DNA of 64,000 nucleotides from an uncultured bacterium (GTDB lineage: Bacteria > Omnitrophota > Omnitrophia > Omnitrophales > Aquincolibacteriaceae): NCBI GenBank assembly GCA_964385615.1, contig CAYLPP010000003.1:203288-267287 (forward strand), given 5' to 3'. Shown here piece after piece: positions 1,826 to 35,367 of the stretch. Position numbers and translations under genes: made by a program. Below the pieces are notes generated by a model. The model did not search any database. It saw only the letters and a program-made list of their open reading frames with translations, and had not been told where the DNA came from. The stretch's first letter is position 1. Each line of letters begins with the position of its first letter.

Positions 1826-1827
1826 TT

Positions 1828-4693: not shown

Positions 4694-7600
4694 TCAGGAA
4701 GGATTCACGCGGTTGCGGTCGCGAACGTCGTTCACAAGCCGTTCAAGAGTGGTCGGCCCCGAAATGTTTTCCGCAACTTGGGCGCTTGGGCCATTCACCG
4801 AACCGTTATTCGAGAGATTCATGACGCTCTCTGAGGACTGTGACTTTTCAGTTCTGATTTCCGCGGGCGGATAGTAAGGCGTTCCGGCAAAAACCGATGC
4901 TTGATAACCCATCACACTATTGATCTCGGCCGCGTTCCCGGAAATCACTGGAACCGTATTGAAAAGCATGGGGTTTGAAAAATCCGGCATCGCGGAGAAG
5001 ACCGTACGGGTCAGATTCTGATTCCATTCGAAACCGCCGCCAAAAACCGCGGAAGGTTCCCCGCCGGACACGGTCAAAACTTCAGGAACAGTCAAGGTGA
5101 TTGGACTTTCGAGCGCCGGTGAAGCGGCCGCTTTAGGTGTAACAGAAACCGTTTGAACCGGCGCGGAAACGGGCGTAACCGAAACCGTTCGAACCGGAGC
5201 CGGAGGAAGCGGTAAATTTTTAACTTCAATGGATCTCACGGGCGCCGTTGAATTAGTATTTAAAAACACTGTTTGCTGAATCACGACATTTTCAAAACTA
5301 ACCGTTTCAACATAAACCGGAGCCGTTGGAGCTGTCACGCTCGCCGCCGCGCTGATCTTCGCACTTCCGCTGTAGGCGGCGGTCTCTGAGTTGTAACCGA
5401 CGCGAATGGAACCATTCGTAATCACGCCGCTGAGCAATTCAATATTCACGAACGAAATATTCTGCAGCTGCTCCTCTGTCAACTTATCGCTGATAAGGCC
5501 CAGAACAAAATCATCCAGAGGCGGCTGCATCAGAATCGAATGGCGCAGGTTTCCCGACTGTCCGGTTTTCTTAACCAGATAGTTACCGTTAAGGCCGGCC
5601 ATTGGCGCGGAACCCCATTCATAACCAAAAGCGCTTGGATTCGCGAAAATCGCAGCAATATCAATCGGAAGTGATTCGACCGGCACAGGCTGGCCAAAAG
5701 TTCCCGTATTCCAGTTTCCTCCAATATATGAAATCGATGCGGTGACAACTTGCGAACCCGGAATCGACGTGGGCGCCTGGTTCGGGCTCAGCGGCGCACC
5801 CGGATTAGGATTAGGATTGGGATTCGGCTGAGGCTGCGGTCCCGGATTAGGCGCCGGGTTTGGTTGCGGCGCCGGATTAGGATTTGGATTCGGCTGAGGC
5901 GCAGGATTCGGGTTCGGATTCGCAGGAGGCTGATCCGGGCCCGGAGCCGGAACTGGCGCTGACGGAAACACAGAAGCCACAATAGTACTTAAACTCACAC
6001 GAAGCGTGTAGTGATACATGTGGCCGTGCTGTTCAGTCGACCACACATTCAAGTTCGTGAAATTAATCCCGAAAGTATCGCCGCTGCGGTCAACGTCATT
6101 AATGGAAAGAACACCGTCCGCGTTATCACCGAGTGAAACAACATAATTTTTCATCAGGGTCATGATGTCGAGTTCTATAACGGTGTTGTTGTCTTTGATC
6201 AAAAGACCTCTGCCGGAATTTCCCGCCCCAATAATCAAAGTGTCATTCCCCACCGCGAAGGCTTCTCCGGAATTGGTGTAAGTGCCGGGAATACTGCGGA
6301 TCCCGCCCGAAACCAAATTAATGAGCTTAAGATTGCCGCCGCTATTGCCGGTCGACACCACCAGCTCATCACGGCCTTGCGTCATAAGGATGCCGCTCAT
6401 ACGGCCGGTCTCATATTCCGTAAGTCCCTGACTCGTCAGTGAAGTCCCGCTTAAATTGAATGTCTGAACAACGACTTTTTCCTCATCCGCGGACGTTCCG
6501 ACCAAATAAAGCTTGTTGCCCGAAACATGCATTGGTTTGTAAACGCCGCCGCCGATATGAAAATTTCCGATCGAGCTGCTGGCCGCGAGACCGCCGTTAC
6601 CGAAACGGTCAAACACGTAAATTTTCGGATCGCTCTCATAGGAGTTTGTATAAAGTAATAAATTTCCGTTATCATCGACATCGACCGATTTAAAAGCGTA
6701 ATAATCCGGGTCATTGATGTTTAATTCGAATATTTTCTTCTCCATGGTTACGGTGTTATAAACATAGCCGAACCGGTTACCGATGGTTCCCGCCATGAAC
6801 CGTTTATTCGCGGAATTCGCGGACCGAACATTGCCGTAATCTCCGAAATTATGCCCCGCGAGCGGTTCACCCAGGAGCACGACCAAATCTGACTCTGAAA
6901 TAATGATCTCCGTGAATTCCCCGGTTGACTGATTAAATTTCCCGAACAGCGGACGGTCATCTTCTTCAATATCACGATGGAAAAGCGTGTTCCCGGCACC
7001 GCCCGAGGACGGAGAGGGCCAGTAAGCAATCATGTATTGTTCGTTTGGACCCGCGGAAATATTCATGCCGTCGGGAATAACGTTCGGATCGCGCACAATC
7101 CGCGTTGAGGGAATAAATGGAGGCTCCTGCGGCTCCGGAGCTTCAGGAAGTTCGGGTTCCTGCGGATTCTGAGGGCCTGTGGGCGGAATCGGATTGCCCG
7201 TACTTTCTCCGAGAATAAAAAATCCGGTTATCGGAGTATCGAGAGCCTGCCCCGCGTAACTCACATGGATAACATAATCAAAGCGCGTTCCGGCCGGAGC
7301 AGACCCGGGAATTGAAAAATCAAAACTCGAAATCTGACCATCCTGGGTAATCCAGGCCGTACCGCTTCTGCTGGTGTACGGATAAAAATAGTAAGGATGC
7401 TGTACATCCACCTGTAAAGAAATCGCCGCGGGCGGTGTCATATTTTCAGGCCATTCATTCCCAATCTCATCCGTCCTTATCACAATCGTCGCGGACCCCG
7501 GCGTTTCAGGAATTCCCGGAGGCGCCCCGGGGGTTCCGGCCTGGGAAGTAATTCCAAGTACATTCGCCCGGGCATACTGTTGTCCCGGCTGAGGACCTTC

Positions 7601-10600
7601 AGGGCCCCAATTCGAAACAGGTCCCACGGGATTCTCAGGCCCCTGCGGCGGAGCCGGAGGCACCGGATTTTCAGGTCCTTGCCCAGGACCCGGAGCCGGA
7701 GGATTCTGATTTTGTCCGTAGATAAAGATTCCCGTTCTCGGAGAAGCAACCGGAATCCCGTTTTGGGTCATGGTGATTTCATAATAAAGCTGTTCCCCGG
7801 CCTGAATTCCGTTGGGATAAAGATAAGCTGTCATACTCACATGGCCCGGAGCAAATTGTTCCTGTCCCTGCCAGCCGAACGCGAAACCGTTTTCATCGTG
7901 GTATTTCACAACGACATGCGCTTCAACCGGCGGATTATAATTTTGAAGACCTGAAAGTTCTGTGAAATCAAAATCAAAAGTAGCGGATCCCGCCAATTGT
8001 GAAATCACGGTGGACTGAACACTTACATCCCCGATCATGGTCTGAGGCTGGCCCGGATTTTGCGTAGGCGGCGTTGGTGTCGGACTCAGAGTAAATCCCT
8101 GACCGACGACAAAATCACCTTCGATCGTGTTTGCGATGTTTTCGCCGTTCTGCGTGATGGTAATCGTAAAATGCAGGGTCGTTCCATTTCCATAAATATT
8201 CCAAAAAGTCGTCGGCACTATGACCTGCCCGGAACCGGAAATATACGCGGCGCCGCCGCCGGCCGGTGTGGTCATATTATTACCTTCCTCATGAACGATA
8301 TTGATGGAGATAATCCCCTGCGGAGAAAGATTCTCAAACGTTGATCCAGCCGCAGGAGCGAGCGTCAACTCAAAGTTCGCGGTTCCCGGATTTGGGAATT
8401 GAGCCGATGACTGAATAATGGACAGCGTCGCCATGCCCTGAACCGGCTGACCATTCCCCGGATTCGGGTTCGGGTTTGGATTTGGGTTCGGATTTGGATT
8501 CGGCTGAGGCGCAGGATTCGGGTTCGGATTTGGTAACGGACCGTCGCCCTGCGGAAGCATTCCAACTGTCATCTTCCCGCTCAAGGTGAAACCGCTTTGC
8601 ATTTCGAGTGCGACATAAGAAATATCTTCAATCGCCACATCCGGCAAATTCGCTCGAATAAAATCAACAACGATCCGATCAAGCGGCTGGCCGGGAATCG
8701 TCAAAATGGAATAATAACTATTTCCCGACTCCACCCGCTGTTTCACAAGATACGTTCCGTTATATCCGGCGCTCGGAGCCGAAGTGAGAGAGTATCCGAA
8801 CTGCCCCGGATTTGCGTAAATGGCGGCAAGGTCCGGGCTCACGGCATCAAATCTGCTGAATCCGCCGGACGTGATCTGATATTCAGAACCCACTTGGACG
8901 AACTTCGCAGCTGCCGTTACGGTATTTGAAATGTCATAGCCGCGCAAAGGATTCTGCGGGGGCCACGGATCAGAGCCCTTATCGCCGGGATTAATATCAT
9001 CACCATTATGATCTATACCATCGTCAGTGCCATCGCCGTCGCCATCAACCATGCCGCAATTAATAGAACCGGTTTCCAGCCAGCTTAAAAACGGACAGGC
9101 CGGGCTCGCAGCGGAAGAGCTTAAGCGGCCGCTGTTGTTTCCATTGTCCCAGAAGAATAGAATTCCTTCACTGGTTTTGAGGAGATCAACACCTTCAATC
9201 GTATAAGGCGAGCTCGCCATGCCGATGGCCGCAAAGAAATTATCCATCCCGCGGCTCATTCCCTGCACAATATTTGAATAATATTTTCCTTCAATGAACG
9301 GGCCGCCGCGGCCCGTGAGCGACGCAACCGTCACGCTCGCATGCTGGAACACGCCTGAGTCGTTATACTGCTGCGAGAAAAGAAGGGTCATGCTCCAATC
9401 CCCCAAACCACCACTGCCTTTGAGAGTGAGAGCGGTATTGTGATCATGAACCTGAACGCCGGCAGGAGTATTGTTATCCACGGCAAATTCGAACCGCGAA
9501 ATCATCGCACCTGTGCCGAAATTTACTTCAGCATAGCTGTCTCCTGTAACAACAATGCTGCTGCCGCCCTGAGGAATTTCCACATGGTCAAGCGTGCTGA
9601 AAGAATATTTCTTAGTTCCATCCGGTTCAGGAGTGTCCAGCTGAACGCTTTGACTTTTTATGACATGCAGCTGATCATCGTAGGTCACAATGTTGAGATA
9701 GCTGTTCATCTCTAGATTGCCGGGCTGGGCCGGTTTTTCAATAATCCCATAGACTACCAATCCGCTGGAGGTGCGAGTCATGCGGGCATCGCCGGCGCTC
9801 AAACCGGGATTATTCAGATAATCCATGTTCAACATCTTGAAACTGGTTTGATTAACGATGTGCCCCGTGCTGTCAACCCTCATGAGGAAAAACTCGCCGT
9901 CACCGGCATTTTCAGGCTTGGTGCCTTTGCCGTTAAAGCCAAAAACCGTAAAGGTCCCGTCACTATTCGGCTCAACGTTATAAACCGTTTTCTTGAAACC
10001 GTTCTTGTCCTTCGCATTAAAATTGGGAATAATGATTTCCGTGCGGTCGACGACATTGCGTTTGACTTTGTCGCCGTTTGCAAGCGTGATCTCCACAGCG
10101 CGCGGAATTGAATACTTATAGAATTTAGCGGGTTCATTATCAGGGAAATCGCCGCCGCCCTTTGTGAAAATAACTCCGCCCGGTCCGACACTTCCAACTA
10201 AAACGCGGCCGTAGCAATCTTCCCGCAGCCCGCAAAGCTCTCCCCCTTTACGAGGCGTCTCTTCGTAAGACCCATCGGAAGTGTTTCTGACCCATACGGG
10301 AATCGCTTCTCCATCCGGTTTCGCGTAAACCGCGCCGTTCTGGAATGCAAAGGAAAGGGCTTGGCCTTTTTTGACCACCGTCCCATTGTCGTTCAAGTAC
10401 AATTCCGCGCCGCCGGCATCCTGCAAATTACCAAGCAAAGTGCCCAAACCAATCTGGTTCGTATAGATTTTTCCACCGGAAGCTGATTTAACGAACGGCA
10501 TGGTTTGGTCGCCGCCCGTTTCATCCCCGCCTCCGTCGCCCGGATCAATATCGCCTCCGCCAGGGCCCTTGCCGTCGTCATATTTCTTAATGAGTTCCAC

Positions 10601-13600: not shown

Positions 13601-16600
13601 GAAAGTTCCTACCCAGGTGTCATTTCCCAGATAAGTCATCATGACATCTTTGATGTCGTAAACAGAATCAACAATCGCGAAAAACAGTTTTTCACCGGGA
13701 TTCAATCCCTGCATTTTGACGGTAACCGTAATATTGGCTGTCTGGGGTCCTGTAACACGGCTCGCGAAAGTAAGATTGCTTTGAGTCACAAACCTCGGAG
13801 GCCATCCCATTTGATAAGTTTTAGCTTCCGGAACTTCCTTCACCAGATCTGTCGCCAGATATGGCTGCCTGACTGCCGGCTCCGCGCCGCCCGTAGAAAT
13901 ATAATTCCTGTCCGGCGGAAACTGGAGTGTCGTTCCATCCTGCAGTTTCGCGACGACAAAAGTATGAAGAAGAGCATTGGCGGGAAGCGAACCCAGCGCC
14001 GCGGACCAGTGATTAGCCGGATTCTGATTTAATGTAACTTTGGTCCAGGAGGCAGGATCCGTATTAGGATCTCCGTAATAAAGATCGGCCCCGACAGGCA
14101 TCGCCATAGGTGAACCCGGATCACCTAATGAAGCAATTGACAAAATGGATTTAAAATCAATCTCCCAGTTACTTCCATCGAAAGCAGGATCTCCAGTCTC
14201 TAACCGGATTTTTCCATTATTGAAATCAAACGTTTGTCCGGAATTCGCGTAGTGATCGGCATTCCATTTATACTTCACGCCTGGAATAATCGGATCAATG
14301 ACCACCGGCGGGTTGGCAGGAGGATCGGATGGATTCACACCTTCCACAGATCCTTTACCGACAACCATTCCACCGCCCTTCGAACCTCGGTTCCAAGTCA
14401 TAAAAACATAGCTGACATCATTTAAATTCGCGACGGGTCCGACAATTTGCGACATTGTAGAAGGAAGCGGATCCCCCGGAATTGTGAACAGAGAAATTTG
14501 CGCACCGTTGGTTTTGATAAACCCGCGCATCCCGGCAAGCGGCACGGGAAGTGACGCGGTATACTGATAACCGTACTTTTCAGGATTCGCGTAGAGCTCC
14601 AGAACGCTTTGCCCCTGATCAAAGTAAGAAATAAATGTTTTTTCACCCTGAGCGTTTAAATCGTCAACTGAAGTGAATCCAACGGGAACAATTCCGCCAT
14701 TGAAAGTAAAATCTGCCGAAGCAATCTGAGTTCCTGAAACGTTATAGCTGTACTGTGTCCCGGGGCCGGGATCAATCGGCGGAGCAAAACCTTCAATGTA
14801 AAATTGTCCTTCCTGACGGTCGGCAATCTCCGCACCCGCGTACTGCAGTCTCACACGGAAATTCCACTGCGTCCCCGCCACGAAATCAATCTGATCGTTA
14901 ATCGTAATCGTCACATGACCGGGCTGCGGTGACCATGCCGTTCCCGCTACAGTCGCCCATCCCTGTCCGGGTCTCATCACTTCGATAATTACTTCCGGCG
15001 AATTCGGAGGCACTCCGTTGCCGGGCCATGAATATCCCGCGTCCGGATAAACATCCAGATTAAACGTCGCTTTTCCGACTTCTCCCGCCGCATGAACATT
15101 CTGAATCACTCCGCGGGGCTGCTGCGCGGGCGGCTGATCGGGGTTATCAGGATTATTCGGGTTGTCCGGAGGAAGCCGGAATGAATGAATGCTGGGAGCA
15201 AAAGACGTTTGAGCGCCGCCAAGCCCTGCCGACGTGGCTTGAGTGTAATCAATCACAAAGTTAAAATCATAGACATCACCCTCAGCGAGCGCTTCCAAAT
15301 CGCCGATCGCGACCCAAAAATCTCCGGCGCCTGGTCCCGCAGTCATCAGCACGTCGCGCGCGTGCGCGGGGCCGGCAACACCATACGTGCTGCGGGGGTA
15401 ATACCGCACCAGAACCTGCTCATTAACCGTAACACCGGAATTAAAATGGACTTTGATCAACTCCGTTTTATCATTCAGAGCGGAGACTCGAAGATTTGAA
15501 TAAGAAACTTCCGCGTAAGGCTGAGGCGTTGAAACCGTATGAACAGCATTGTCGGTATAGGTGTAGTCTGGAATCCCCGTCATGTTCTGCACCGGGTTCT
15601 GCACCGTTCCCGCAGTCGTGAAATAATCCAGATTCGGGCGGAAGGCAAGCCGGTTATCTCCGCTGTTGATCACGAAACGAAGGAAATACTGCTGACCCTG
15701 CTGAAGCCCCTGAACATTCGCGGAGCAGTTACCATTGCTGCAGGTCATGCGTGCCGTAAAAACCGAGGTCCCCTCACCAGGCGCGGCCCAGTACTCAACG
15801 TCCACCGGCCCATTCGGAAGAGTGGCACCGAAAGTCGTGCTGAAATTCACGCTCAGCGTGGCGGAATTCGCCTGAGTTGTATATTGAGTACTGCCAATAT
15901 GAAAGTGCGCGGAAGCGGGCGTGATGAAATAATATTCCTGCCCTTCCCGGCTGTTGTAAGTGTTACTGCTCGAACGGTAAGCCTGTCCGGGTGTTACTGG
16001 ATTTCCGCCTTCTGAGCTCCGCGTTGTAAAACGGTCGATTCCCGGAATAAAGCTGGTGGAAATCGGGATAAAGTTCGGATCGTTCGGATCAAGCGGGCGA
16101 TTGCGACCTCCATATAAAATGGAAACATTGGTGCGGTAGGTCGTATTCGGATTCAAACCGCTCAGATCGACCCGGCATTCCACATTCCCGTCGGCCTGTG
16201 TGGAACAGGACATCAGGGCGATACTGATATTCGGATTGGCGGCGGAAGCGTCCCAATACTGAAGCGAGACAGTGTTACCCGCAGCAAGGCGGACACCACT
16301 GTTAAAGAGCGCGCTGATGGTAGCGGTGTTGGCACCCAGCGACTCCACATTCAGTGCTTTTACGCGAATCGTCAAATTCGGATTATTTCCAACAGGAATC
16401 GTTTGCCAGTTGATCGTGGGCGGATTATTCGGTTCATCAGGGCCGGTCGGTTCCGTCGGTTCAACAGGGATCACGGGGGCAGGCGCGTTAAAACCAATCG
16501 CGGCGTAGAAATCTTCAAGTTTCATATCGACAAACGCGGCCGCGTAGCTGGAAGCCGCTGAAGCCACTGAGAAAGAAATACGGCCTTTGCCGACCGTGAA

Positions 16601-21700: not shown

Positions 21701-24700
21701 CTGCTTCCGGCTTTCCGGCGTTAAATTAAACCTGGCGTCCAGCAGACTCTCCAGAGGCAGCCGCGGCTGATCTTCCCGCCCCTTTTTATGGCCAAAAGCA
21801 TCCTCCGGAAGAATCATTGACCGAGCTTCCGAACGAGAAGCAATACCGGGTTTTAAGCTAAGCTCGAGACTAAAAATCCTGTATTTTTCGTCATCCTGGT
21901 TCGGAGCATGAGACGAGCGGACGTCACCCGCGCCGGCCTGATAATCCGGAAACAGATAAATTAAACTCCGTCTTAAAAAATCGATGGCATTCATAATCTC
22001 CGTACTCTGCCGATACTCGCCGGTCCACTGAAGAATCACGCGATCCGGCTGAGCTTCCCGTTCATTAACCGCTTCACGGCGCGCCCGCCCGAATGAGGGA
22101 AGCGCGCTTACGGCGAGGGTTTCCGCGATTGGTTTTAAAGCAGCGGTCTTCTCAAGAAAGTCCCGCCAAAAAGCCTGCTGTTGATCCGCCTCTCCCTCAG
22201 CACTACCCGGCAGGAATGAAAAAACATCCGATTGAATCAAAACGCGAAGGGTTTCCTGAAGCACCGCTTCAGTCATAAGGCCACGGGGCACGGTCGGCAG
22301 TTTTCGAATTGCTTTATCAAACGCGAGAGTCTGAAGATTTTCTTTAGCATTTGCCCATTTTGGGGAAAGAGTTCCGGAAAGTTCCTGAGCGGCTTCTAAA
22401 TAATCCCCTTGTTCGAAAAGCCGGCGCGCGTCCCAAAGGTGAGGCCCCGAACTCGTCTGAAGCCCCGAAAAAGCCCGCCGAAGTTCCGCTAAAATCCGGT
22501 CCCTTTCCTCATCCTCTAAAGGTGCTTCTGTCACAGCAGTTGCCATGCGGACCTCAGAGCGTGAACTTTCGCCCCCCCGCAAAGCCCCGATCCCTTCACT
22601 CACCGCTTTTTCAAAAGCGGTCCATTCAGGAATAAGACCGGGATCCATAAAAGCTGGATCGATTCCGTTTAAAGCCCGGGCAACTTCGAGGGCTTTTTCC
22701 AAATAGTCCGCCGCAGCCCCAGGTGTTTTTATCTCGTCGGCCGTTAATCGAACCGCGGACTCGCCAAGCGCTCCGAAAAACGAAACGCTGTCTCCATCCC
22801 TCCCCGCGCTAAAAGCATCGAGCGCTGACCCGTAAGCAAAACCCAAGGCTGAAAAGGACTCGTTATCGGGAAAAAAGAAACCGTGATCTACCACAAATAT
22901 TTTCCCGGTGCCGTTCTCCAAAACAATATTCCCTGGGTTCTCAACCACATCAAAAAAATTCACCTTCTTACGGATCATCATTAAGCCGGTCTTGAAAATG
23001 CTTTCAAACGCAGATTTGACTCGCCCCGACTCTAAAAGCTCCTTAGCGCTTTCTCCGTCCACCGCCCGCACACTCATAATTCCAACGTTACTTCTGAAAG
23101 GCAGCCGGGCACGAACACCCGTTCGAGGACCAACTTCCAGACGTCCCATGAGCTCAGTTTCACGCACTTGTTCATTATTTAAAATTCCCGCGTAAATACC
23201 AAACGTATAACTCCGGCCTTGAAATTCAGCGCGCACTCGAAAAAAATCACGGTTACTTCCGGCTTTTGACTGCGGATCGAGAATCAGTTTTATCGGCTCG
23301 CCTGCACCGGCTTCTATTTTTTCTTCGGGATAGATTAACGCCAAAGAGCCTAGAATAAACTTCCGGCTGGATAGTGTTTTACGCAAAAGATCACTCAAAC
23401 CCGCAATAAGAGGACCTCTTTTCTCTAAATCCCGAAATGCCCGGCTCTTGAGCGGAACATCCGCCGGAATATCGGCATCAACACCTCCATCCGCTAAATC
23501 CTCCGCGCTCAGCTCCGGAACCTCTCGAAACTCAACTCGAATTTCGGATCTTCGCATGGCGGAAAGTTCATCTTCGAGAGACGCGGGAGAAAGAGCGGAA
23601 ACAGAATCCGCGTTAATTTCGATAAACTCCCCCGTGACTTTCGCTTTAAAAATACCAAGGGAATTAATCCTCTCAACGACGGTCTGGCGGTACTTGTCCA
23701 GCCTTCCGGGTTCGGCCAGCATCCATTCTCCGGCGCGGCGGTATTCGTCCGGCGAATAGCCTTGGTAATTGGGCACCATTTCACGGAGCACCATATCCGC
23801 GAAATTAATTCGATACCAGTCCGTATCGACTAAAGTCCCAAGCGAATCGTAACCCAGAGCGACAGCATCCCCGGCACGGCGCCGGGCTTTGCCGACAAGC
23901 AAGAAAAGTCTCCGGGAACTCAGCCTTTCCCCATTTTTCTGATAAAGCTGGAGAAGCATGTCTCCTAGTGAAAAACTTGTTCCGGTCAGAAGGAACCCTT
24001 TATCTTTCAGATAGGGGCTTATCTGTTCAGGAATCATCGCCTCCGGATGAGGGTAATATTTAAAAACATTGTAGGCGCTTATAAAATCGAAACTTCCCGG
24101 CTGGGCCCCGCCCAAACCGTCGCTAAGCTTTCCAGTCTTAAATTTTACTTTCTTCTTTCCGCTTTCCTCACCTTGAAACGGATTGGCAATAATCGAAATT
24201 CCTTTTGCCGATCCAGCCTCCGGATTGAGCCGGACTCGTTTAAATTCCTTGAGATAATCCCGCCCAAATAGCCGGGTCCACCAGTCCGGCTTCCATTCAT
24301 AGCTGTAAATAAGTTTCGGCTCAGAGCCGTCATTTTCCTGGCGGATGAAGGCTGTCCATCTTGCAGAATCACTATCGAGAACATAATTCGCGAAGTTAAT
24401 CTGATCAATCGCCGTGTAATCTAAAACGGCTTCAGAATGAAGGCTTGAGAGAACTCCTGATATCCATTCCGCCTGATCTCTTGTGACATACGCCGGATAG
24501 CCATTTCCAAAATCCGCAACCTGATAAGTCCTCTCGCCATCCTGAGCCAAAGCTTTCGTCAAAGACTCAATGACAGGACGGGCAGGATCCATGCGCCCTT
24601 TAAAACTTCCGACGGACGTGACGCGATCCACGGATCGAAGTTCGGAACGAGCCTGGTTTTTTACAGCCTCTTCCGCCGCGGCCTTTATCAGATTCTGCCA

Positions 24701-27700
24701 AGCCTGGTCCCGTGAGGTCAACGGCCCCTCAGACGGAGCCCATATCCATTCTCGTAACTGTTTCTCCAGCCGCTGCATCACCTTAAAGTCCCCGCTCTGA
24801 AGATACGGCAGAAAATAAAGCCGAAGCGCTTCTCCCGCTTCCATTTCCGAGACCTGAATAGTCATGTCATTAGGAACCAGATCACGGCGGTTCGCAAATG
24901 AAGAAATCCAGCCATTTTCACCAAAAACCTCTTCCTGAAAAACTTCTTCCGCTGTTCTATCTTTGAAGCGGAAAGGAATTTTCACCGCACCGGGACTCTT
25001 CCGTTTAGGTCTTTCTCTGGTTTCTAAATGTGCGAGATACGCTTCACGGATTGATACCCAAACCCGCTGAGCATCGCCGGGAGTCACGTCTTTTAAATCC
25101 CGCTTCTCTCCGCGATAGAGGGACTCCAAATTCCGTTTTAACTGCTCAAGCGGAAAATTTCTCTGCTTCACCAGATACCACTCTAAAGCTTCTTCAACAA
25201 AAGCAGGTTCTTCAAGCTGACCCATTTTTCCCTGGACACCGGCCCGCAAGAATAAATCTGTCCATTCCACCCCAGCAGCTTCACGCGCCGCAAGATCTGC
25301 CTCTACTTTAACTGCCCGGATTTTGCGCTCCTCCATTTCAACCCGCCGCGCTTCCTGAGCGGCCTTCTCGCGCTGAATCAAGTCCTGATACCCTGCTGCC
25401 CCGGCACCATATCGTGGGATAAAAATTCCCGAGAACAAGTCCTGAATTGAATTTTTTTGCCCGATCCACGCCTGAATCTGAGCCAGAGGAATCTCCGGAA
25501 CCGTACCTTGCTCCGCTTTCTGATTTTCAACACTGAAAGATTCGGTCACAAGCGTGTGCAGTGAGAAATTCTGGCCATAGCCGGGAAGCTTTCTTTCAGG
25601 CCAGGGTTCACGCGTGAAAACATTTGCCTGACGTTTTCCCGTTCCGCTTTGAATTCCGCCAGCGGCGACAATCACCCCGCGCACCGGAACACCGGCCCGC
25701 CGAAGCAGTTCCAAATCGCGGACCTGCCCGGGAATCTGCGAATTGATTGTTTCCCGAATGAGCGGGTTTAAATCCGCGGCATCGTCTTCTTTAGCCTCAA
25801 CAAAATAAAGACCCTCCCCAAAATCCATTCCTTCAGGCGGCGTCACTCCCGGCCGGGGTTTAAGTGAAAGCATAATGTCGTACTCATGAAAACCAATCAG
25901 CAGATTAACGCCCAGAACCTCAACTTCATAGTAGGGTGCCAAAATTTTCTCCAGGCGGTACGCGGTCATGAGTTCACCCGCGGCCTCATCAAACCCCTTA
26001 TCACCCCCTAACTTATAAGCACTCATAAGGCGAATCACGAATTCACGCATCCCGGGAAGATTCGTATAGCGATCGGAGATCAAATATTTCAATTCTCCGA
26101 ATTTTTCCTGATTTTCCAGGATCCAAAGCTGTTCCAGCCGGCGTAACCGGGCCAGCTTGCTATGCTCAGCAAGAACATCCAGCGCCCAATCCACAGGCTC
26201 CTTTTCAGCCGGCTGCTCTGTATCGGTACGCAATTCAGAGCGCGAGATTCCGCGAAGGTTAGTTAGAAGCTCCCCGAATAATTCGGCGCTGATATTCTCG
26301 TTTGCCTCCCGAGGGGTACCCCCAAAAATCTGAACATGATTCTCTCCCACCACGCTAAAAATCTTGGTCCTGGCCGGATATAAAGCCAAACGGCGGCTGA
26401 GCACTTCACCCGCAATTTGATTGCGGACTTCAAGCCGCGCATTCCTAACACGATTCAGCCGTTCAAGAAATACGGGAATGGACGAAGGAGAGGTTCTTAG
26501 CTGTCTCAATTTTTTAACTACAAGATTGCGCTTCTGATCTTCACTCAACGGACTTCTATGAAGCGCTCTCAGTGATAAGGAAAACCATTCCGGCGCGGGC
26601 AGCTGCGTGAGCTGTAAATCGGGAACACCGCTGATTAAATGGATGAAAAGGAGGGATTCCCACACATCATCCGCGGAAAGCCCCAGAGTATCCTGAAGTC
26701 TTTGAATCACTTCGGGAGCTTCCAGTCTGGGAATAGGATCAAAAACGGGAATCCTCAAACCCCGGGCAACTTCCTTCATCGTTGTAACTTCAGCCGGAAG
26801 CGCGGCCTGGGCTCCTAAACCCGGGAGGACCAACTCCTCCGGCTCTTCGGCGCCTTCCAGCACAATGACCCAAGAACGGGGATTTCCGATCGATTTTTGC
26901 GCGATATCCAGAGCATATTCCGGTAATTGAGGATCTCCGTGCATTCCCCCGATCAAATCTACTTCATAGATTTTTCCGCTCAAAGACTCTTTCCACCGGC
27001 CTTTAAAGTGCGCGGGAGGAAGCGAGTAAATATCCAGATAATTTTGGGTGAAACTATTTTGAGCCGCCGCGTCTTTGTATTTCTTACGCACGGCCCCAAA
27101 AACTTTCCGGTTAACGAAAAGATCGTAAAAAAACCTGGGAATCACCAACAGAAGCCATTTGATCCAGGACTCCGGCTTTTCAACCTGATTTTCGGACGAA
27201 TTTTGCGTCCTGGATTCGGAGCGAGCGGACGGGACAACATTTCTTAATTGAATTTCCCTGCTCAGATCAAAACCGAGATAACCGTTTTCCTCAAGAAGTC
27301 CGAGAAAAACATACGGATCGGCTGCCGTACCAAGAATCGCCCGGATATTTGCTTCTGCCTGTTCTCGAATTGAAGCAATCGTGTTTCGAGGATGAACATT
27401 CGCGGGTGAACCTGAAGTCACTTCCGCGGCACGCCCTGTCTGGTAAATCACTTGCCCAATGGCGCCAATCATCCATTCAGGAACTTTCTGTCCGTCAAAA
27501 AGATTCCCAATCTGTTCTTTAACATGACTTTTAATCAGCTTCTCGCGCTCATAGGCAGCCTGCAGTTCGGGAGCCTGCGAAGGCTGGTACCCCTGAGACT
27601 TGAGAGCAAGACTGCTTTTCCCCTTATCCACTTCAGCAGACAGTGCATCCAGGATATTTCCGGGTTTAGCGATCAGGTCTCCAATTTTGTCAAAAGACGC

Positions 27701-30700
27701 CGCCTCCAGATTCGGTTGATCCAAGGGACCTTTTGAAACTTCGGCGGCCGCAAGCGTCAAGTCGGCCCGAACCCACCGCCCCGTCTGCAGCCGGGAAAGA
27801 GAAGAAGGCATCCCTTCATATTTCTGCGTTTCAGGAACCCAGAGATCTCCAAGGCTGATAATAAATTCTTTTTGCTCGCTCCCCGCTTCAATCCTAGCTT
27901 CAATTTCCGGATATTTTTCCGGGAACGCGTCGCGCAGAAGTTTCTGCCGTTTCTCCTGCGGAAGAGCTTTAATTTTTTCAAAATTAAGCGGGATTTTGAC
28001 TCTCTGATACATGACCCATCTCAGATACCCATGAAGAACCGGCGCGTATTCAGGCTTTCTTAAATCTTTGGAGGTCAAGCTCTCATCGCCGCGGGTTTCC
28101 GCGAGATAGGCTTTAAAGGCCGGGGGCGCGCGCCCCTGGTGCGTGGAAATCCATTCCAGCTCCTTTTGAATCGTGTCTGTCACAATTCCGAACAGAACAC
28201 TGTCCTCAGCCGGATAAAAATCGAAGCGCGCCGAAAGAAAATCATTCACTTGCTTAAAATTATCAATATCAATCATGAAGAGAAGAAGCTTTTTGTCATT
28301 GTCCATTACGCCGAAAATCTCGTCACCGATCGAAGCTTGAGAGTATCCCGAAACATGTTTATCCTCAGTGAGTCTTCTTTTATTGATCATCCGATATACG
28401 TCATAGATTAGAAAGGCCTTATTGGCCTGACGGTGATCCCGGCTGTCACGGGTGATTAGAATTTCTGTCTTCCTGAAAATTTCCCGGATTTTCGGCATGG
28501 CTTTTTTGAGCTCTTCACGTCCGCTCCGGTCTTTCCCTATTCGAATGGCTTCAAGAAGACGGGTTAAAAGATCGGTGGTCTGACGCTCAAACCGTGAAAC
28601 TGAATTGATCTTGACGGTATCATCCGGGTACCCCCAATCCAGTCCGGGCCAAGGGTGATGAACTTGCAGAGGAAAAGATCCTCTCTGACTTCCTTCCGAT
28701 AATCCGCGCCCCTCCGTGAGGACTTCCTGCCTTTTCCGGCTCTCTTCCATCATATCGCCCAGGATTTCATAAATAGTCACGGCAAGGCGGTAAGATTTTA
28801 ACCGCTTATACATATTGGCAAAAAGGAGATCATCATCAGCCGTCTGCTCACTGTCAACCGACGGCGGGATCAGTAATTCAGACAAAGATTTAGTAACCCC
28901 GGTAACAAAAACCGGATCTCCGCTGTCAATGCTTCTCCAGATGCGCCTGGCCATGACCGCGGGAAAATCTTCCATCTGAGCCTCAGCTTCAAGGGTATCG
29001 TAATCAGGATTGTTGGCATTTAAAACAGTCTCAAGCGTTCCCAGAGAAATCATCGCCGCGGGCGTTTTTAAATGCCCCTGCATCTCTTTGCGCACCGCGG
29101 CGACACGAACGGCCGTTTCTCCGCCGTCAACCGCGTTATCCTGCATCCGCTGAAGCGCGAGATCGAACTCCCGCCTGGCTTCCGCGTTAACTTCACTAAT
29201 AAACTGAGCCGCCAAGTGTTGAGGAATCCCGATAATCACCGGGCGTTTTCCTTTAACAACCCAGGCGGTTACCCCGTCCATTCTCTTTACAACCGTGTCG
29301 ATCGCGCGTTCCATCGCGTGCCACATTTCATTGCCGGCGCGCATACTGGGGTCTGCTTTATTAATCGCGCTCATCGGGGCCATGTACCCCAGAGTGATAA
29401 TAGTCTCCGCTCGAACTTCTTCGGAACGGATATTCCGGTTGCGCTGGTCGCGCATCAGCCATTGCGCTATAAATTCAGGCCCTAAATGCGTTGTGTCGAA
29501 ATCTTTTTGGAGGTACCCGTATAAACGGATCAAATCCTGCATCTGCTCCAGAACAGACGGAACCAGCCGGTCCCAGCGGCCGTCACTAGAAATTGCCGCC
29601 GCCTCTAAAACCTGCAGAATCTTTTCCACTTTTCCCAGCTGACCGGCAACGCGCAAATTTCTGCGCACAATGGGATTCGCGGTTCCGCCTCTACGCCGGT
29701 CCTCAATCCATTCGTCCCCCACCTTAACTTTGCTTTTTTCCGCCCGTAATTCACTGCGCGGAGCAACGGCACCGGCAAAGTAAGGAACCGGTATTCCAGA
29801 AGTCTTCAGCAGACTCATGACATTATTTTCATCAAGTTTTCCCAACTTATCGAGAGACCGCACACTGCGAATGAACGCGTCAATATTGGCAAGCCATTTT
29901 TCGCGCACAGAATCCAGGAAATCCCCGTTAATTTCATCTAAAAGCTGAAGATAAGAATCAGCCTTCTCCACGCGGTTCTGCGCGGAAAGATCGCGGATAA
30001 TCTGATCCCTCCACGCCTTTAAAAGTTTTCCGGGCTGATCGGTCTGCTTCAGAAGACGGTCGCGAGTTGAACGAGCAAAAGCCCGGGAGAGATTGATTTT
30101 CCCATTCTCAACCTGAAGATATTTCTTCCAGGACACATCCCCTTGCATTTGAGCCCGGTAAAGCGAAATCTCCGGGATCGACTGCATTTCCGGACGAATC
30201 AGCACGTAGGAAATCCCCGCTTCCCGTAAGATTCGGGCCAGACCCTGCGCATGAAACCCTCCAAGCACCAAAGCTCCCCGGTTCAGATTTCCGGCCTTAA
30301 TCCCATTTATAAAGTTTCCGGCAATCGCCCTCTCCCTGGCCTCCGCGTTTTTGTAAAATTCTTCAGCGGAAATAAAATAAGAGGAGGCAGGGTCTTCGGC
30401 TATTCCGTCTGATTGAATTTTTTCCCAATCTTTCCGTGAAAGCTCCAGAGAAGCCAGTTTTCGCAAGTGTTGAAAATGACGGATATCCTGAAGAAGTTTT
30501 TTCTGTTCTCCGGTTTCAGCCAGCCGATCCTGAATTTCTTCAGAATACGCTTCAAATTCCTGAAAGAACCGGGTTCCTTCTAGACCCTGAAGACGCTGAT
30601 GAGCTAAGATCCGGGCCTTGAGGCCCTCTGAATAAGCAAGCGAAGGAAGAAAAGTCTGCAGTTCTGAAGCGAAAGCGTCTTCCCGGATCTCTCCCGTCCG

Positions 30701-31588
30701 GTAGGCCTGACTCAAAGCCTGAAATTTTTTTCCGGCACCGGCGTTCTCCTGGCGGTTTTGGGGAGAATCCAAAAAAGAAAACACCCTCTGTGAAGCTTTA
30801 GAAATCTCCTCTTTGAATTCTTCTTCATTCCCGATAGAGTTTTCATTCAAAATCAGTTCCAGCGAGGAACCCTTTGGCGGTTTTTGAATACTCGCCAGAA
30901 GCTGAAGCACATTCAGCATGTCCTCCTGATTTTTCCGAAAGGCCTCAAGACTGCGTTCTAATTCCAGAAGACGCGGCGTAAAGAGCCTGTTCTTTCGATC
31001 ATTGATAATTTTTTCCATTTCCGCAATTTTGACGGAACTCTGCCGGCTGTCCGCGGCCGCCCGAAAAAGGGAGAAACCCTGCTCGTAAAGCCCCCAATCT
31101 TCAACACCTTCAAATTCCGCCAAGCCCGGTCCGGTGATTGCCGATTCGGCAGTTCCCGTCAATTCGCCTTTTTCCGCGTATCCATTGAGAACCGTCTTCA
31201 AAATTCCGGCATCCGGAAAACTTCTAAAAAGCTGCGGGTCAAAAGGCCCGAGAGCGCCCTCAACCCCGATGTAGCGGACTCCATGATCGGTCTGAAGTAA
31301 ATTCAGTAAAGCCTGAATGTTTTTCTGGGCGTCAGGAACAGCATGAGCGTCCTGAATCAGGAAAACGGCGGGAAGATCTTTTTGGCCTTCTGAGACTTCC
31401 TCAATTTTTCCAAGACCCGATGGGATTTCAAATTTGGATAAATCAGCTAAAAGAAGAACCTGGGGATCGGGTTTGGATTCAGAACCCGCCAGCGCGGATG
31501 GAAATGGAACGGGACCTGTCATGGCAAAACAGACCACGACCGCCCCCGCAACCCACCGATTTAAAGAGGTTTTCAGAGTGATTTTCAC
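18731..31588 (-). CDS. giant multidomain protein, 4,285 aa, N-terminal signal peptide, highly charged and helical, with TraB/Tiki-like, kinase-like, GGDEF-like and ATP-grasp-like motifs
   Basis: An uninterrupted 12.86-kb ORF with GTG start and N-terminus MKITLKTSLNRWVAGAVVVCFAMTGPVPFPSALAGS. Motifs by region: GGFHAQGLARIL (GxxHxxG, TraB/Tiki-like); IDIDNFKQVND; NPGNIVLENGTGKIFVVDHGFFF; and VVLKPDQGALGIGV...VVLNEIGFLPGG near the C-terminus. Confidence 0.75.
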   Translation of the reverse strand: MKITLKTSLNRWVAGAVVVCFAMTGPVPFPSALAGSESKPDPQVLLLADLSKFEIPSGLGKIEEVSEGQKDLPAVFLIQDAHAVPDAQKNIQALLNLLQTDHGVRYIGVEGALGPFDPQLFRSFPDAGILKTVLNGYAEKGELTGTAESAITGPGLAEFEGVEDWGLYEQGFSLFRAAADSRQSSVKIAEMEKIINDRKNRLFTPRLLELERSLEAFRKNQEDMLNVLQLLASIQKPPKGSSLELILNENSIGNEEEFKEEISKASQRVFSFLDSPQNRQENAGAGKKFQALSQAYRTGEIREDAFASELQTFLPSLAYSEGLKARILAHQRLQGLEGTRFFQEFEAYSEEIQDRLAETGEQKKLLQDIRHFQHLRKLASLELSRKDWEKIQSDGIAEDPASSYFISAEEFYKNAEARERAIAGNFINGIKAGNLNRGALVLGGFHAQGLARILREAGISYVLIRPEMQSIPEISLYRAQMQGDVSWKKYLQVENGKINLSRAFARSTRDRLLKQTDQPGKLLKAWRDQIIRDLSAQNRVEKADSYLQLLDEINGDFLDSVREKWLANIDAFIRSVRSLDKLGKLDENNVMSLLKTSGIPVPYFAGAVAPRSELRAEKSKVKVGDEWIEDRRRGGTANPIVRRNLRVAGQLGKVEKILQVLEAAAISSDGRWDRLVPSVLEQMQDLIRLYGYLQKDFDTTHLGPEFIAQWLMRDQRNRNIRSEEVRAETIITLGYMAPMSAINKADPSMRAGNEMWHAMERAIDTVVKRMDGVTAWVVKGKRPVIIGIPQHLAAQFISEVNAEARREFDLALQRMQDNAVDGGETAVRVAAVRKEMQGHLKTPAAMISLGTLETVLNANNPDYDTLEAEAQMEDFPAVMARRIWRSIDSGDPVFVTGVTKSLSELLIPPSVDSEQTADDDLLFANMYKRLKSYRLAVTIYEILGDMMEESRKRQEVLTEGRGLSEGSQRGSFPLQVHHPWPGLDWGYPDDTVKINSVSRFERQTTDLLTRLLEAIRIGKDRSGREELKKAMPKIREIFRKTEILITRDSRDHRQANKAFLIYDVYRMINKRRLTEDKHVSGYSQASIGDEIFGVMDNDKKLLLFMIDIDNFKQVNDFLSARFDFYPAEDSVLFGIVTDTIQKELEWISTHQGRAPPAFKAYLAETRGDESLTSKDLRKPEYAPVLHGYLRWVMYQRVKIPLNFEKIKALPQEKRQKLLRDAFPEKYPEIEARIEAGSEQKEFIISLGDLWVPETQKYEGMPSSLSRLQTGRWVRADLTLAAAEVSKGPLDQPNLEAASFDKIGDLIAKPGNILDALSAEVDKGKSSLALKSQGYQPSQAPELQAAYEREKLIKSHVKEQIGNLFDGQKVPEWMIGAIGQVIYQTGRAAEVTSGSPANVHPRNTIASIREQAEANIRAILGTAADPYVFLGLLEENGYLGFDLSREIQLRNVVPSARSESRTQNSSENQVEKPESWIKWLLLVIPRFFYDLFVNRKVFGAVRKKYKDAAAQNSFTQNYLDIYSLPPAHFKGRWKESLSGKIYEVDLIGGMHGDPQLPEYALDIAQKSIGNPRSWVIVLEGAEEPEELVLPGLGAQAALPAEVTTMKEVARGLRIPVFDPIPRLEAPEVIQRLQDTLGLSADDVWESLLFIHLISGVPDLQLTQLPAPEWFSLSLRALHRSPLSEDQKRNLVVKKLRQLRTSPSSIPVFLERLNRVRNARLEVRNQIAGEVLSRRLALYPARTKIFSVVGENHVQIFGGTPREANENISAELFGELLTNLRGISRSELRTDTEQPAEKEPVDWALDVLAEHSKLARLRRLEQLWILENQEKFGELKYLISDRYTNLPGMREFVIRLMSAYKLGGDKGFDEAAGELMTAYRLEKILAPYYEVEVLGVNLLIGFHEYDIMLSLKPRPGVTPPEGMDFGEGLYFVEAKEDDAADLNPLIRETINSQIPGQVRDLELLRRAGVPVRGVIVAAGGIQSGTGKRQANVFTREPWPERKLPGYGQNFSLHTLVTESFSVENQKAEQGTVPEIPLAQIQAWIGQKNSIQDLFSGIFIPRYGAGAAGYQDLIQREKAAQEARRVEMEERKIRAVKVEADLAAREAAGVEWTDLFLRAGVQGKMGQLEEPAFVEEALEWYLVKQRNFPLEQLKRNLESLYRGEKRDLKDVTPGDAQRVWVSIREAYLAHLETRERPKRKSPGAVKIPFRFKDRTAEEVFQEEVFGENGWISSFANRRDLVPNDMTIQVSEMEAGEALRLYFLPYLQSGDFKVMQRLEKQLREWIWAPSEGPLTSRDQAWQNLIKAAAEEAVKNQARSELRSVDRVTSVGSFKGRMDPARPVIESLTKALAQDGERTYQVADFGNGYPAYVTRDQAEWISGVLSSLHSEAVLDYTAIDQINFANYVLDSDSARWTAFIRQENDGSEPKLIYSYEWKPDWWTRLFGRDYLKEFKRVRLNPEAGSAKGISIIANPFQGEESGKKKVKFKTGKLSDGLGGAQPGSFDFISAYNVFKYYPHPEAMIPEQISPYLKDKGFLLTGTSFSLGDMLLQLYQKNGERLSSRRLFLLVGKARRRAGDAVALGYDSLGTLVDTDWYRINFADMVLREMVPNYQGYSPDEYRRAGEWMLAEPGRLDKYRQTVVERINSLGIFKAKVTGEFIEINADSVSALSPASLEDELSAMRRSEIRVEFREVPELSAEDLADGGVDADIPADVPLKSRAFRDLEKRGPLIAGLSDLLRKTLSSRKFILGSLALIYPEEKIEAGAGEPIKLILDPQSKAGSNRDFFRVRAEFQGRSYTFGIYAGILNNEQVRETELMGRLEVGPRTGVRARLPFRSNVGIMSVRAVDGESAKELLESGRVKSAFESIFKTGLMMIRKKVNFFDVVENPGNIVLENGTGKIFVVDHGFFFPDNESFSALGFAYGSALDAFSAGRDGDSVSFFGALGESAVRLTADEIKTPGAAADYLEKALEVARALNGIDPAFMDPGLIPEWTAFEKAVSEGIGALRGGESSRSEVRMATAVTEAPLEDEERDRILAELRRAFSGLQTSSGPHLWDARRLFEQGDYLEAAQELSGTLSPKWANAKENLQTLAFDKAIRKLPTVPRGLMTEAVLQETLRVLIQSDVFSFLPGSAEGEADQQQAFWRDFLEKTAALKPIAETLAVSALPSFGRARREAVNEREAQPDRVILQWTGEYRQSTEIMNAIDFLRRSLIYLFPDYQAGAGDVRSSHAPNQDDEKYRIFSLELSLKPGIASRSEARSMILPEDAFGHKKGREDQPRLPLESLLDARFNLTPESRKQKVFKIADFGTSLGDFLPAIQNQMMGLGYAVPEVEGFEAKGAAVIAGKRAGYPVQKAVVNADGITKIEAEENETRLTELEKRYDLIFFNAWDPSGRASQGFGPMFKVFKRYAQNDQSLGFVRLYNSQKISDEEKLAESRELEREIKKHPEIYFLEFSEASSPEIAAGKSPLGPLVLISLTPFSEALKTAARSEVRSFSFEAPANASDWGEIYAALQKEVNTAQFTDPNDPAEELQRLLAVVEPIIQKALGLPASYTAVEESVSSFGDYNLDSNPDRMRKRLFLMKAEKLMSAAMLKSMGHEVQFLETADGPEQELTFAELEFFIPEDLTGIFLLSQGHPELAMVVSAPFTKEVEVRGNRIWVLGGWFVKEGKIFWVHRFTKPRLVNAYNLGNISLEESLGGIIRGQFGTPLAYPPQSRDLKRFTFKSIIYLALQDPHPEIEVPRHLVQNLDKKIFTLESERRDVIVKNVQRALTSYGTDVVLKPDQGALGIGVQFFSSSDSLGEIERKVEEHLKSYPPEKAVLRYLIEEKIPLLPLKPDGRDKEVSWGVRLLLSLNPKTGRVETVNRLVRLQEGFLRRTAEYTSRDVWPVEKTFNQLGLEAGEQGRLSAEMERAAQAIYDVVSTQGRQKPGIVSVDFFITPDKKVVLNEIGFLPGGQAWFYSLPEAERLAFGNLRYDPYWFDRVAVEASKARSETRLEPILISEDLTALAMQLYPDASTAVTPRAELRRAVQQVARREIDLDLLEKTLRQAVEQTLANIRPEASVNEAVHAVFSPMIDAMLSFFRKKISEAVPGNRKVVLALDLSEIDRNGFERAESDYADILTRYFSNEVERLLIKGTLSAEVTGKIRESGISLTAQNRMEKISGTVLLNQKVLPLIRASGNIYQTSNQVLWPVGIRYDHDSGVNAEAAVMARFSQTLFGILSALLVRQPGDAEKLRAEFLQALALRKQYGDAAQAVVSFDEQGHAYINAKALEILMTRQAQTLTSRSA

Positions 31589-35365: not shown

Positions 35366-35367
35366 TT

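Follow-up and report, generated by a model that had tools for sequence, protein, structure and literature searches.

The purine biosynthesis (pur) cluster of an uncultured member of the Omnitrophota (family Aquincolibacteriaceae; GenBank assembly GCA_964385615.1, contig CAYLPP010000003.1, positions 203,288 to 267,287) carries two giant genes between purF and purM, referred to here as G2 and G1. The whole of that 64,000-nucleotide stretch is called the window, and coordinates below are positions within it. The explanation we favor for the window as a whole, with a probability of roughly 0.5, is that a pur cluster was split and now holds a secreted effector polyprotein of the family represented by G2, together with an exoprotein, G1. 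A further and more tentative proposal concerns a short motif, R-[SA]-E-x-R, that recurs along G2 and its relatives. It may be a programmed processing site, at which the many secreted precursors of Omnitrophota genomes would be cut, possibly by a TIKI-type hydrolase at their own N-terminus, each into a different set of orphan enzymes of about 300 amino acids (aa) acting in a host or prey; we hold this to be possible rather than probable.

A purine cluster split by two giant genes

G2 and G1 were called as two minus-strand open reading frames (ORFs) between purF and purM, together spanning 26.9 kb. As the first-pass annotation of this DNA had stated, neither translation contains an internal stop, and the spacers measure 124 bp (purF-G2), 186 bp (G2-G1) and 69 bp (G1-purM). 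An independent gene call has purM begin with the ATG at 4615, which would lengthen the last of these to 78 bp, and the longest possible ORF for G1, from a TTG at 18727, encodes 4,677 aa. The locus is laid out as follows:

31713..39106, minus strand: purB, purC, purS (36630-36881), orf169, purQ, purL and purF, the upstream half of the pur cluster (Pfam)
31589..31712, minus strand: purF-G2 spacer, 124 bp, 36% GC, without terminator or structured RNA
18731..31588, minus strand: G2, GTG start, 4,285 aa; predicted exported modular protein, member of an Omnitrophota family
31487..31588, minus strand: predicted G2 signal peptide, aa 1-34, ending PSALA before GSE; the sole hydrophobic segment, carrying the only Cys of G2
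18545..18730, minus strand: G2-G1 spacer, 186 bp, 32% GC
4694..18544, minus strand: G1, ATG start, 4,616 aa; predicted exported beta-rich orphan, rich in Gly, Asn, Pro, Thr and Ser
18452..18544, minus strand: predicted G1 signal peptide, aa 1-31, ending VPVLA before GSD
4625..4693, minus strand: G1-purM spacer, with an 8-bp hairpin overlapping the purM ribosome-binding site
767..4624, minus strand: purM, purD, purE and a Sua5/low-molecular-weight (LMW) phosphatase fusion, the downstream half of the pur cluster (Pfam)

Because an ORF of more than 4,000 codons at 50% GC cannot arise by chance, both giants must be coding. Their GC content, GC at third codon positions (GC3) and codon usage match those of the neighboring housekeeping genes (relative synonymous codon usage, r = 0.90 and 0.78). 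In each, a single N-terminal hydrophobic segment precedes a site of A-x-A type, in line with the signal peptides named in the first-pass annotation, and no further transmembrane-like segment is present; cleavage is predicted between ALA and GSE in G2 and between VLA and GSD in G1. Judged by these features, both are real coding genes for exported products. An independent Logan assembly (SRR16481186) reproduced window positions 2002-4945 at 100% identity, a stretch running from the end of G1 through purM and purD into the start of purE. In exact-sequence look-ups purD alone was on record, on a 2.9-kb Logan contig; purF, G2 and G1 were not.

An assembly artefact, a chimeric join or a pair of decaying pseudogenes is an extremely improbable account of the locus. 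The purF/G2 and G2/G1 junctions are without an independent assembly, and the two giants stand in the same frame with one stop between them. Against this, the ORFs run uninterrupted over 12.9 and 13.9 kb with host-like composition and codon usage, the G1/purM junction is identical in the Logan assembly, the purF/G2 arrangement recurs in a relative (locus L083, below), and G2 carries every hallmark of its family from the signal peptide to the [SA]A terminus. The earlier view that these are genuine coding sequences and not assembly junk has thus held.

The two giants are unrelated to each other in sequence, composition and distribution, and no other G2-family locus examined had a G1-like partner. 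The first-pass treatment of them as a pair therefore falls away, and the link between G1 and G2 is one of adjacency only. Two observations on the spacers can be added. G2 and G1 share a reading frame, in which the AT-rich spacer of 186 nt is open except for the TAA of G2; read-through of that codon would yield a product of about 8,960 aa. By our own estimate a shared open frame would occur by chance in about 1-2% of cases, and it is probably a coincidence. A single split gene was rejected as an explanation, G2 having the terminus of its family and G1 a signal peptide of its own. The other observation is an 8-bp GC-rich hairpin (GCCCCUCU...UGAGGGGU; 4625-4660, minus strand) just upstream of the purM ATG; the fold of the whole G1-purM spacer was not significant (z = -1.2).

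The history of the insertion can be read from the pur loci of relatives, a comparison that the first-pass annotation had suggested. A metagenome scan with purM returned distant relatives only (58% identity or less). In five loci with the same purM-purD-purE-sua5 order (L086, L089, L093, L105 and L141), purF lies 15-60 bp upstream of purM. Since loci that share this order have purF adjoining purM, the 26.9-kb segment is a derived insertion; by this comparison, an ancestral purB-C-S-Q-L-F-M-D-E cluster was split by an insertion bearing two unrelated giants. The expectation that purF and purM are normally contiguous was borne out in these loci. The cluster of the window holds a second non-pur insert: orf169 (36106-36615, minus strand), which encodes 169 aa, lies between purS and purQ with gaps of 12-14 nt and has a signal- or lipoprotein-like N-terminus. 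It had no Pfam match and no homologue in any fetched locus.

Two related loci are informative as to where members of the G2 family reside. In L083, a gap of 142 bp separates purL and purF (the PurF protein 87% identical to that of the window) from a G2-type gene, which carries RSELR motifs and runs to the end of the contig. Its N-terminal domain is 38-42% identical to that of G2 and its other modules are unrelated, such that between these two genomes purF has kept 87% identity, the N-domain about 40%, and the cargo is unrecognizable. Locus L024 shares the gene order of the window's right-hand part (PBP, gshB, gshA, tRNA-Pro, spoU, ligA, xerC, tRNA-Glu, purB, purC), and its family member is located between ligA and xerC.

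The first-pass annotation had offered two accounts of the position of the giants, control by purine starvation and a permissive insertion site. The former, in which the pur-cluster position couples expression of the giants to purine limitation (e.g., for host attachment or attack at low nucleotide levels), we consider very unlikely. All of the genes point the same way, and none of the three spacers flanking the giants showed an intrinsic terminator; L083 keeps a G2-type gene after purF, and in another relative a member lies about 1.8 kb upstream of tRNA-Glu and purB; Omnitrophota have been proposed as predators or parasites (PMC10066038). Yet an Rfam search of the 64-kb window at gathering thresholds found two tRNAs only, and no purine, ZTP or other riboswitch. 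RNA folding, promoter and terminator scans of the three spacers yielded nothing beyond chance, including no structured RNA, and no recognizable purine-responsive cis-element was found (PurR-type operators were not searched, as no motif is known for the phylum). At 32-41% GC the spacers are AT-rich, and they are long by comparison with the junctions between pur genes, which consist of 4-nt overlaps or gaps of 12-14 nt; this pattern suggests separate regulatory regions for the giants. Contiguity of purF and purM in relatives also counts against coupling, as does the distribution of the family. Co-transcription with the pur genes is compatible with the sequence but not implied by it.

In other Omnitrophota genomes, most G2-family genes are scattered among unrelated housekeeping genes. 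Only two of 80 family loci are pur-adjacent, which is near chance expectation by our own rough estimate. Given this scatter, the ligA/xerC position of the L024 member and the near-chance frequency of pur adjacency, the site appears to be permissive, and the position of the giants fits best with gene turnover at a tolerated insertion site and not with purine biology. No mobile-element gene is visible in the short junction spacers (border direct repeats were not searched), in agreement with the earlier statement that no integrase, transposase or tRNA marks the junctions. A XerC/D-like recombinase (39692-40573, minus strand) and a tRNA-Glu(CTC) (39129-39206, minus strand) are located at the operon head, about 7.5 kb from G2, the tRNA directly upstream of purB and the recombinase beyond it. 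Because the same xerC, tRNA-Glu, purB order is found in L024, they are conserved housekeeping neighbors and not island borders. A classical genomic island was rejected on these grounds together with the host-like GC and codon usage of the giants. Taken alone, the presence of two giants in a purine operon is of modest interest; it shows free insertion between essential genes and rapid turnover.

The G2 family and its boundary motif

A search with the N-terminal 1,200 aa of G2 gave homologues (P0001-P0015) that were Omnitrophota or Omnitrophica proteins wherever they were named. A genome scan with one genome per species gave 101 matches, of which the best 80 were inspected. All but one of these 80, titled Planctomycetales, were titled Omnitrophota/Omnitrophica or 'uncultured bacterium', and they included several G2-family copies per genome. 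The best N-domain identity to G2 among species representatives was 42%, so the genome of the window is absent from that collection. Judged from these matches, the family is multi-copy, fast-evolving and restricted to the Omnitrophota. The parts of G2 discussed in this section are:

29789..31447, minus strand: N-terminal family domain, aa ~48-600; TIKI/erythromycin-esterase/ChaN/TraB-like alpha/beta core with a helical insertion of ~250 aa (model)
31343..31354, minus strand: Q79-D80-A81-H82, directly after a beta-strand; putative catalytic Asp/His; invariant in 16 sequences
31256..31261, minus strand: E110-G111, putative catalytic Glu, 28 residues after H82; invariant in 16 sequences
30251..30262, minus strand: G443-G444-F445-H446, second His motif, GxxH type; G443, G444 and H446 invariant, F445 in at least 90%
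29744..29758, minus strand: motif 1, RSELR, aa 611-615, end of the N-domain
19631..29743, minus strand: eight unique, non-repeated cargo modules of 845, 327, 531, 366, 330, 242, 234 and 501 aa
27209..27223, minus strand: motif 2, RSESR, aa 1456
26228..26242, minus strand: motif 3, RSELR, aa 1783
24635..24649, minus strand: motif 4, RSELR, aa 2314
23537..23551, minus strand: motif 5, RSEIR, aa 2680
22547..22561, minus strand: motif 6, RSEVR, aa 3010
21821..21835, minus strand: motif 7, RSEAR, aa 3252
21119..21133, minus strand: motif 8, RSEVR, aa 3486
19616..19630, minus strand: motif 9, RSETR, aa 3987
19520..19534, minus strand: motif 10, RAELR, aa 4019, start of the C-terminal module
18734..19534, minus strand: C-terminal module, aa 4019-4285, ending ...TSRSA

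Many family members exceed 3,000-4,000 aa, some stand in tandem, and 65 of 72 have an N-terminal hydrophobic segment. Cysteine averages 0.10% across the family, as compared to 1-2% in most neighboring housekeeping proteins; in G2 it falls to 0.02%, a single residue within the signal peptide, leaving the mature chain Cys-free. Of 17 long, complete ORFs of the family, 16 terminate in [SA]A. G2 has all of the features that define the family, namely a signal peptide, an N-domain with QD[AV]H, EG and GGFH, the R-[SA]-E-x-R motifs, Cys depletion and the [SA]-A end. This ...[KST]-[SA]-A-COOH end (in G2 aa 4281-4285, window 18734-18748; also in members from L007 to L082) resembles a ligand for PDZ domains or tail-specific proteases, for which no partner was identified. 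With the giants as queries, no match above threshold came from PADLOC, NCBIfam or PDB sequences; whole G2 had no Pfam match at E <= 0.01, and comparing it tile against tile by phmmer revealed no internal repeats.

Of the R-[SA]-E-x-R motif, G2 contains nine copies as RSE.R and one as RAELR, where about 0.15 would be expected from an estimate based on composition. Across 81 family proteins (205,000 residues), RSE.R was observed 279 times against 5.7 expected, an enrichment of about 50-fold, which makes it the top enriched gapped pentamer, above the conserved motifs of the N-domain itself. The fourth position is occupied by Leu, Val, Met, Ala or Thr; residues on either side show no constraint, and successive motifs are a median of 323 aa apart. 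Different synonymous codons are used at the ten G2 sites, which places the constraint on the peptide and not on the DNA; an explanation at the DNA level, such as a recombination site, was rejected for the same reason. The first motif falls in a linker (residues 596-620) modeled with a predicted local distance difference test score (pLDDT) below 50. In complete homologues the last motif is 255-320 aa from the C-terminus, and in three members (P0001, L013 and L026, in the last as KAEIR) a motif stands three residues from the C-terminus.

Variants of this architecture were observed among the family loci. In L005 (12775-22613) and L054 (6208-15057), the N-domain protein is short and the motif-bounded module array is encoded downstream in an ORF of its own, about 3,000 aa long or longer; the second ORF of L005 has RAE.R in place of RSE.R and begins with transmembrane helices. 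Large motif-rich ORFs lie directly upstream of family genes in L038 (3-9671) and L079 (2-9868), and also in L006, L029, L045 and L084. Apparent tandem giants thus recur in the phylum, the family N-domain motif being present in the L079 upstream ORF only; the second giant of the window, G1, does not belong to the family. The members in L014 (3,727 aa) and L026 (3,082 aa) are without R[SA]E.R, but keep the N-domain and an AA C-terminus; the L026 end, KAEIRKAA, suggests that some lineages have a form of the motif with Lys.

The N-domain is the constant element of the family, conserved over about 560 aa in homologues. Residues Q79, D80, H82, Q88, E110, G111, R418, G443, G444 and H446 are invariant across 16 sequences, from which an AlphaFold2 model was made (mean pLDDT 80). 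In the model, a helical insertion of about 250 aa splits an alpha/beta core with a central parallel beta-sheet, the fold of Bcr135, EreB/C, ChaN, TraB and RRSP; D80-x-H82, E110 and H446 each follow a beta-strand, that before the H446 motif being residues 437-442. Structure comparison gave a signal that was consistent but of moderate strength: Foldseek against PDB placed EreC and BcR135, both of the TIKI/erythromycin-esterase superfamily, at the top, with E-values (0.08-0.46) that are not significant, and RRSP was also among the structural matches. Bcr135 has a 2His/2Glu arrangement that includes H85/E113, and RRSP, a TIKI-superfamily endopeptidase and MARTX effector, has E3900, H3902, E3930 and H4030 (PMC6254334). 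At the sequence level the same arrangement can be recognized in G2, the spacing of H82/E110 being that of Bcr135 H85/E113 and RRSP H3902/E3930 (PMC6254334). The TIKI/Ere/ChaN/TraB-PrgY-GumN core is the best structural match, with the acid-x-His, the Glu 28 residues on and the GxxH-type His likewise in G2, although the first acid is Glu in RRSP (E3900-x-H3902) and Asp (D80) in G2. With moderate confidence, the modeled N-domain would represent a new divergent branch of the TIKI/Ere superfamily at the level of fold and motif, with a putative hydrolase activity.

By contrast with this constant domain, the cargo of one paralogue bears no relation to that of another, and the same holds for the positional counterpart in L083. 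Those of G2 had no homologue among the 80 family loci, apart from one weak C-terminal link, and aa 3010-4285 had none in an index of 5.8 billion proteins. In homologues, clear Pfam domains (PPDK_N, PseudoU_synth_2, DnaJ and SAM methyltransferases, SAM being S-adenosylmethionine) lie within single motif-bounded modules; a protein-kinase match was below the curated cutoff. The clear domains need ATP, SAM, RNA or Hsp70, which are unavailable outside a cell. The C-terminal modules form small clusters. That of G2 has weak sequence links to the C-termini of L026, L030, L049 and P0005 and marginal profile-profile similarity (E about 0.002) to two other clusters, so that these modules may be homologous throughout the family. 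Their constant size of about 270 aa brought type V autotransporters to mind, a reading that was rejected upon inspection, as the sequence looks helical and is without an aromatic end.

Two other arrangements of these parts deserve consideration. The chain might remain uncleaved, as a giant periplasmic or surface multi-enzyme scaffold in which the motif serves as a hinge, a docking peptide or an element recognized by secretion machinery or chaperones. No protease is tied to the motif, a tag at module ends would fit the three members with a motif near the C-terminus as well as a cleavage site does, and 'multi-enzyme metabolic cluster' giants have been reported among Omnitrophota proteins of 10,000 aa or longer (10.64898/2026.06.07.730766). 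We find the scaffold doubtful all the same: five conserved residues whose flanks are free to vary, placed in a linker predicted to be disordered, are more typical of a site recognized by an enzyme than of a hinge, cargo that is unrelated between paralogues makes one cooperative machine unlikely, and ATP-, SAM- and RNA-dependent domains would lack their substrates in the periplasm.

The N-terminal segment might instead be an uncleaved anchor, with the modules facing the cytoplasm of the producer as a membrane-tethered regulatory or metabolic multi-enzyme. Such an arrangement would suit cargo that looks like cytoplasmic-type enzymes, and nearly half of long Omnitrophota proteins have been read as membrane-anchored with cytoplasmic domains (10.64898/2026.06.07.730766). 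It is nonetheless unlikely here, given the order of elements at the G2 N-terminus (Lys and Arg, a short hydrophobic core of about 14 residues, then the A-x-A site), the family-wide depletion of Cys and the absence from G2 of a further transmembrane segment. The positive-inside rule places the bulk of such a chain outside.

G1 and the remaining features of the window

Searches for homologues of G1 covered two stretches, aa 1-1300 and 3185-4384, or 2,500 of its 4,616 aa. The first had no homologue. For the second, HMMER against 1.84 billion representatives gave matches whose best stretches were Pro-rich linkers, with no true homologue among them; the six top matches that were inspected were unrelated proteins with such linkers. 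Whole G1 had no PADLOC or PDB match. Its Pfam matches were a marginal fn3 (27.5 bits against a cutoff of 25, with no individually significant stretch) and, with it around aa 768-961, marginal Pur_ac_phosph_N and PhoD_N. Cysteine makes up 0.3% of the protein. A domain of about 140 aa, here called 'A', occurs in four divergent copies without a match to solved structures, and several divergent Ig/fn3-like repeats are also present:

17771..18190, minus strand: 'A' domain copy 1, aa 119-258 (tile-against-tile phmmer and alignment)
14342..14740, minus strand: 'A' domain copy 2, aa 1269-1401 (tile-against-tile phmmer and alignment)
8555..8992, minus strand: 'A' domain copy 3, aa 3185-3330
5393..5818, minus strand: 'A' domain copy 4, aa 4243-4384 (tile-against-tile phmmer and alignment)
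5714..5962, minus strand: Pro/Asn-rich low-complexity linker, aa ~4195-4277; a second linker at 8414-8557

G1 shares with giant adhesins (RTX adhesins such as LapA or SiiE, Bap/Ig-repeat proteins) its large size, export, beta-rich and Cys-poor composition, Pro-rich linkers and Ig/fn3-like units. It differs from them in that Pfam and NCBIfam scans found no RTX, TPS, cadherin or BIg domain and the marginal fn3 only, that no cell-wall or membrane anchor motif was seen on reading and no second hydrophobic segment is present, and that its repeats are highly divergent and not near-identical. From its sequence, the most fitting description of G1 is a secreted or surface protein specific to its lineage.

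Two other features of the window were noted. Directly after purE, positions 767-1825 (minus strand) encode a Sua5/YciO/YrdC domain fused to a low-molecular-weight phosphotyrosine phosphatase domain; the purM-purD-purE-sua5 order is kept in several distant metagenomic loci. At 59805-60917 (minus strand), a ParA/MinD-type ATPase carries a C-terminal glycogen-binding (AMPK1_CBM/CBM48) domain, a combination that looked unusual.

Comparison with known systems and the proposed mechanism

Giant ORFs are a published hallmark of the Omnitrophota (PMC10066038; 10.1101/2023.11.21.568195; 10.64898/2026.06.07.730766), and for that reason two large genes in this genome are unsurprising. The described giants of the phylum are mostly larger, at more than 10,000-30,000 aa, whereas G1 and G2 are of 4,300-4,600 aa and have a signal peptide only. 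Those of the Archaeovorin/dockerin type exceed 30,000 aa and have many transmembrane helices, C39 or S8 peptidase and SecA-like or dockerin domains, and type II secretion or pilus genes nearby (10.1101/2023.11.21.568195). G1 and G2 do not belong with them, having none of those Pfam domains and lying among housekeeping genes, those of the pur cluster included. Earlier work has suggested that Omnitrophota giants are cleaved into several products after translation (10.1101/2023.11.21.568195; PMC10066038; 10.64898/2026.06.07.730766); according to West-Roberts et al., the cleavage points were unknown, which stopped the splitting of giants into units (10.1101/2023.11.21.568195). Term searches of 10.1101/2023.11.21.568195 and 10.64898/2026.06.07.730766 found neither purine nor polyprotein nor purF, and those of the latter found no TraB, Tiki or erythromycin. 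The G2 family is apparently undescribed, its architecture and R-[SA]-E-x-R not having been found in the literature searched.

MARTX toxins release their effector modules by means of a built-in protease and carry a C-terminal type I secretion signal. G2 resembles them as a secreted chain of several thousand residues bearing a variable string of unrelated modules, likened to effector enzymes, that differ between close relatives; its modules are unique within the protein and unrelated to those of paralogues, as in a heterologous effector array. The differences are substantial. G2 has no internal repeats where MARTX toxins have Gly-rich A/B/C repeats. Nothing in it corresponds to the inositol-hexakisphosphate-activated cysteine protease domain, for which it has no Pfam match and, in a Cys-free mature chain, no cysteine. 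Its N-terminal signal peptide is of Sec type and not a type I signal. The TIKI-like domain is a constant N-terminal element in G2 and a cargo module (RRSP) in MARTX, and the proposed cut site of G2 is a fixed pentapeptide. By analogy, then, the family may work like a MARTX toxin, but it is no member of the MARTX family. Viral polyproteins offer a second parallel, in that one product comprises unrelated units, a short recurring recognition sequence and a protease-like domain in the same chain. Unlike them, G2 is encoded on a bacterial chromosome and begins with a Sec signal peptide; its processing is proposed here from sequence.

The proposed order of events is as follows: the Sec signal peptide would export the cysteine-free G2 chain, in which the constant TIKI/erythromycin-esterase-type N-domain heads a string of unrelated modules of about 320 aa that resemble cytoplasmic-type enzymes. 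The R-[SA]-E-x-R linkers that bound each module would then serve as proteolytic processing sites, with the N-domain as the most economical candidate for the processing enzyme. Processing would free the modules as separate products acting outside the producer, probably within a cell of a host or prey. We infer that the motif is cleaved, that the N-domain is the protease and that the products reach another cell, and likewise that G1 is adhesive.

Several observations weigh against this explanation and must be set beside it. Even at E <= 5, Pfam gave the N-domain no TraB/PrgY/GumN, erythromycin esterase or ChaN match, and the N-domain family profile found nothing relevant among PDB sequences. The TIKI superfamily includes esterases and non-enzymes (ChaN, PMT), such that the fold does not imply a protease role. 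The motif could instead be a structural, docking or secretion-related linker. Hints of function in the G2 cargo (GGDEF-, SAM-methyltransferase-, PI3/4-kinase- and ATP-grasp-like) were all below curated thresholds in Pfam and NCBIfam. Extra hydrophobic segments occur in the cargo of about half of the family members, where products may be membrane-anchored rather than released. No secretion system, immunity gene or dedicated protease was linked to the locus, and the larger ORFs of the window, when scanned, included no secretion-system or transporter family. An adhesive role for G1 is a guess from its composition.

Giant genes are a signature of the Omnitrophota, yet their function is obscure. 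The G2 family is a testable candidate in this regard, combining in one chain a boundary motif, a conserved domain that resembles hydrolases and a conserved C-terminus. Should the motif be a processing site, discrete candidate effectors could be delimited within hundreds of kilobases of Omnitrophota coding sequence that is now unannotated, and the phylum's giant proteins would have their first concrete cleavage code, allowing them to be split computationally into functional units. If the proposal is true, it would also add a new branch of TIKI/Ere hydrolases and would mean that a MARTX-like delivery logic has arisen independently in an uncultured phylum of predators or parasites.

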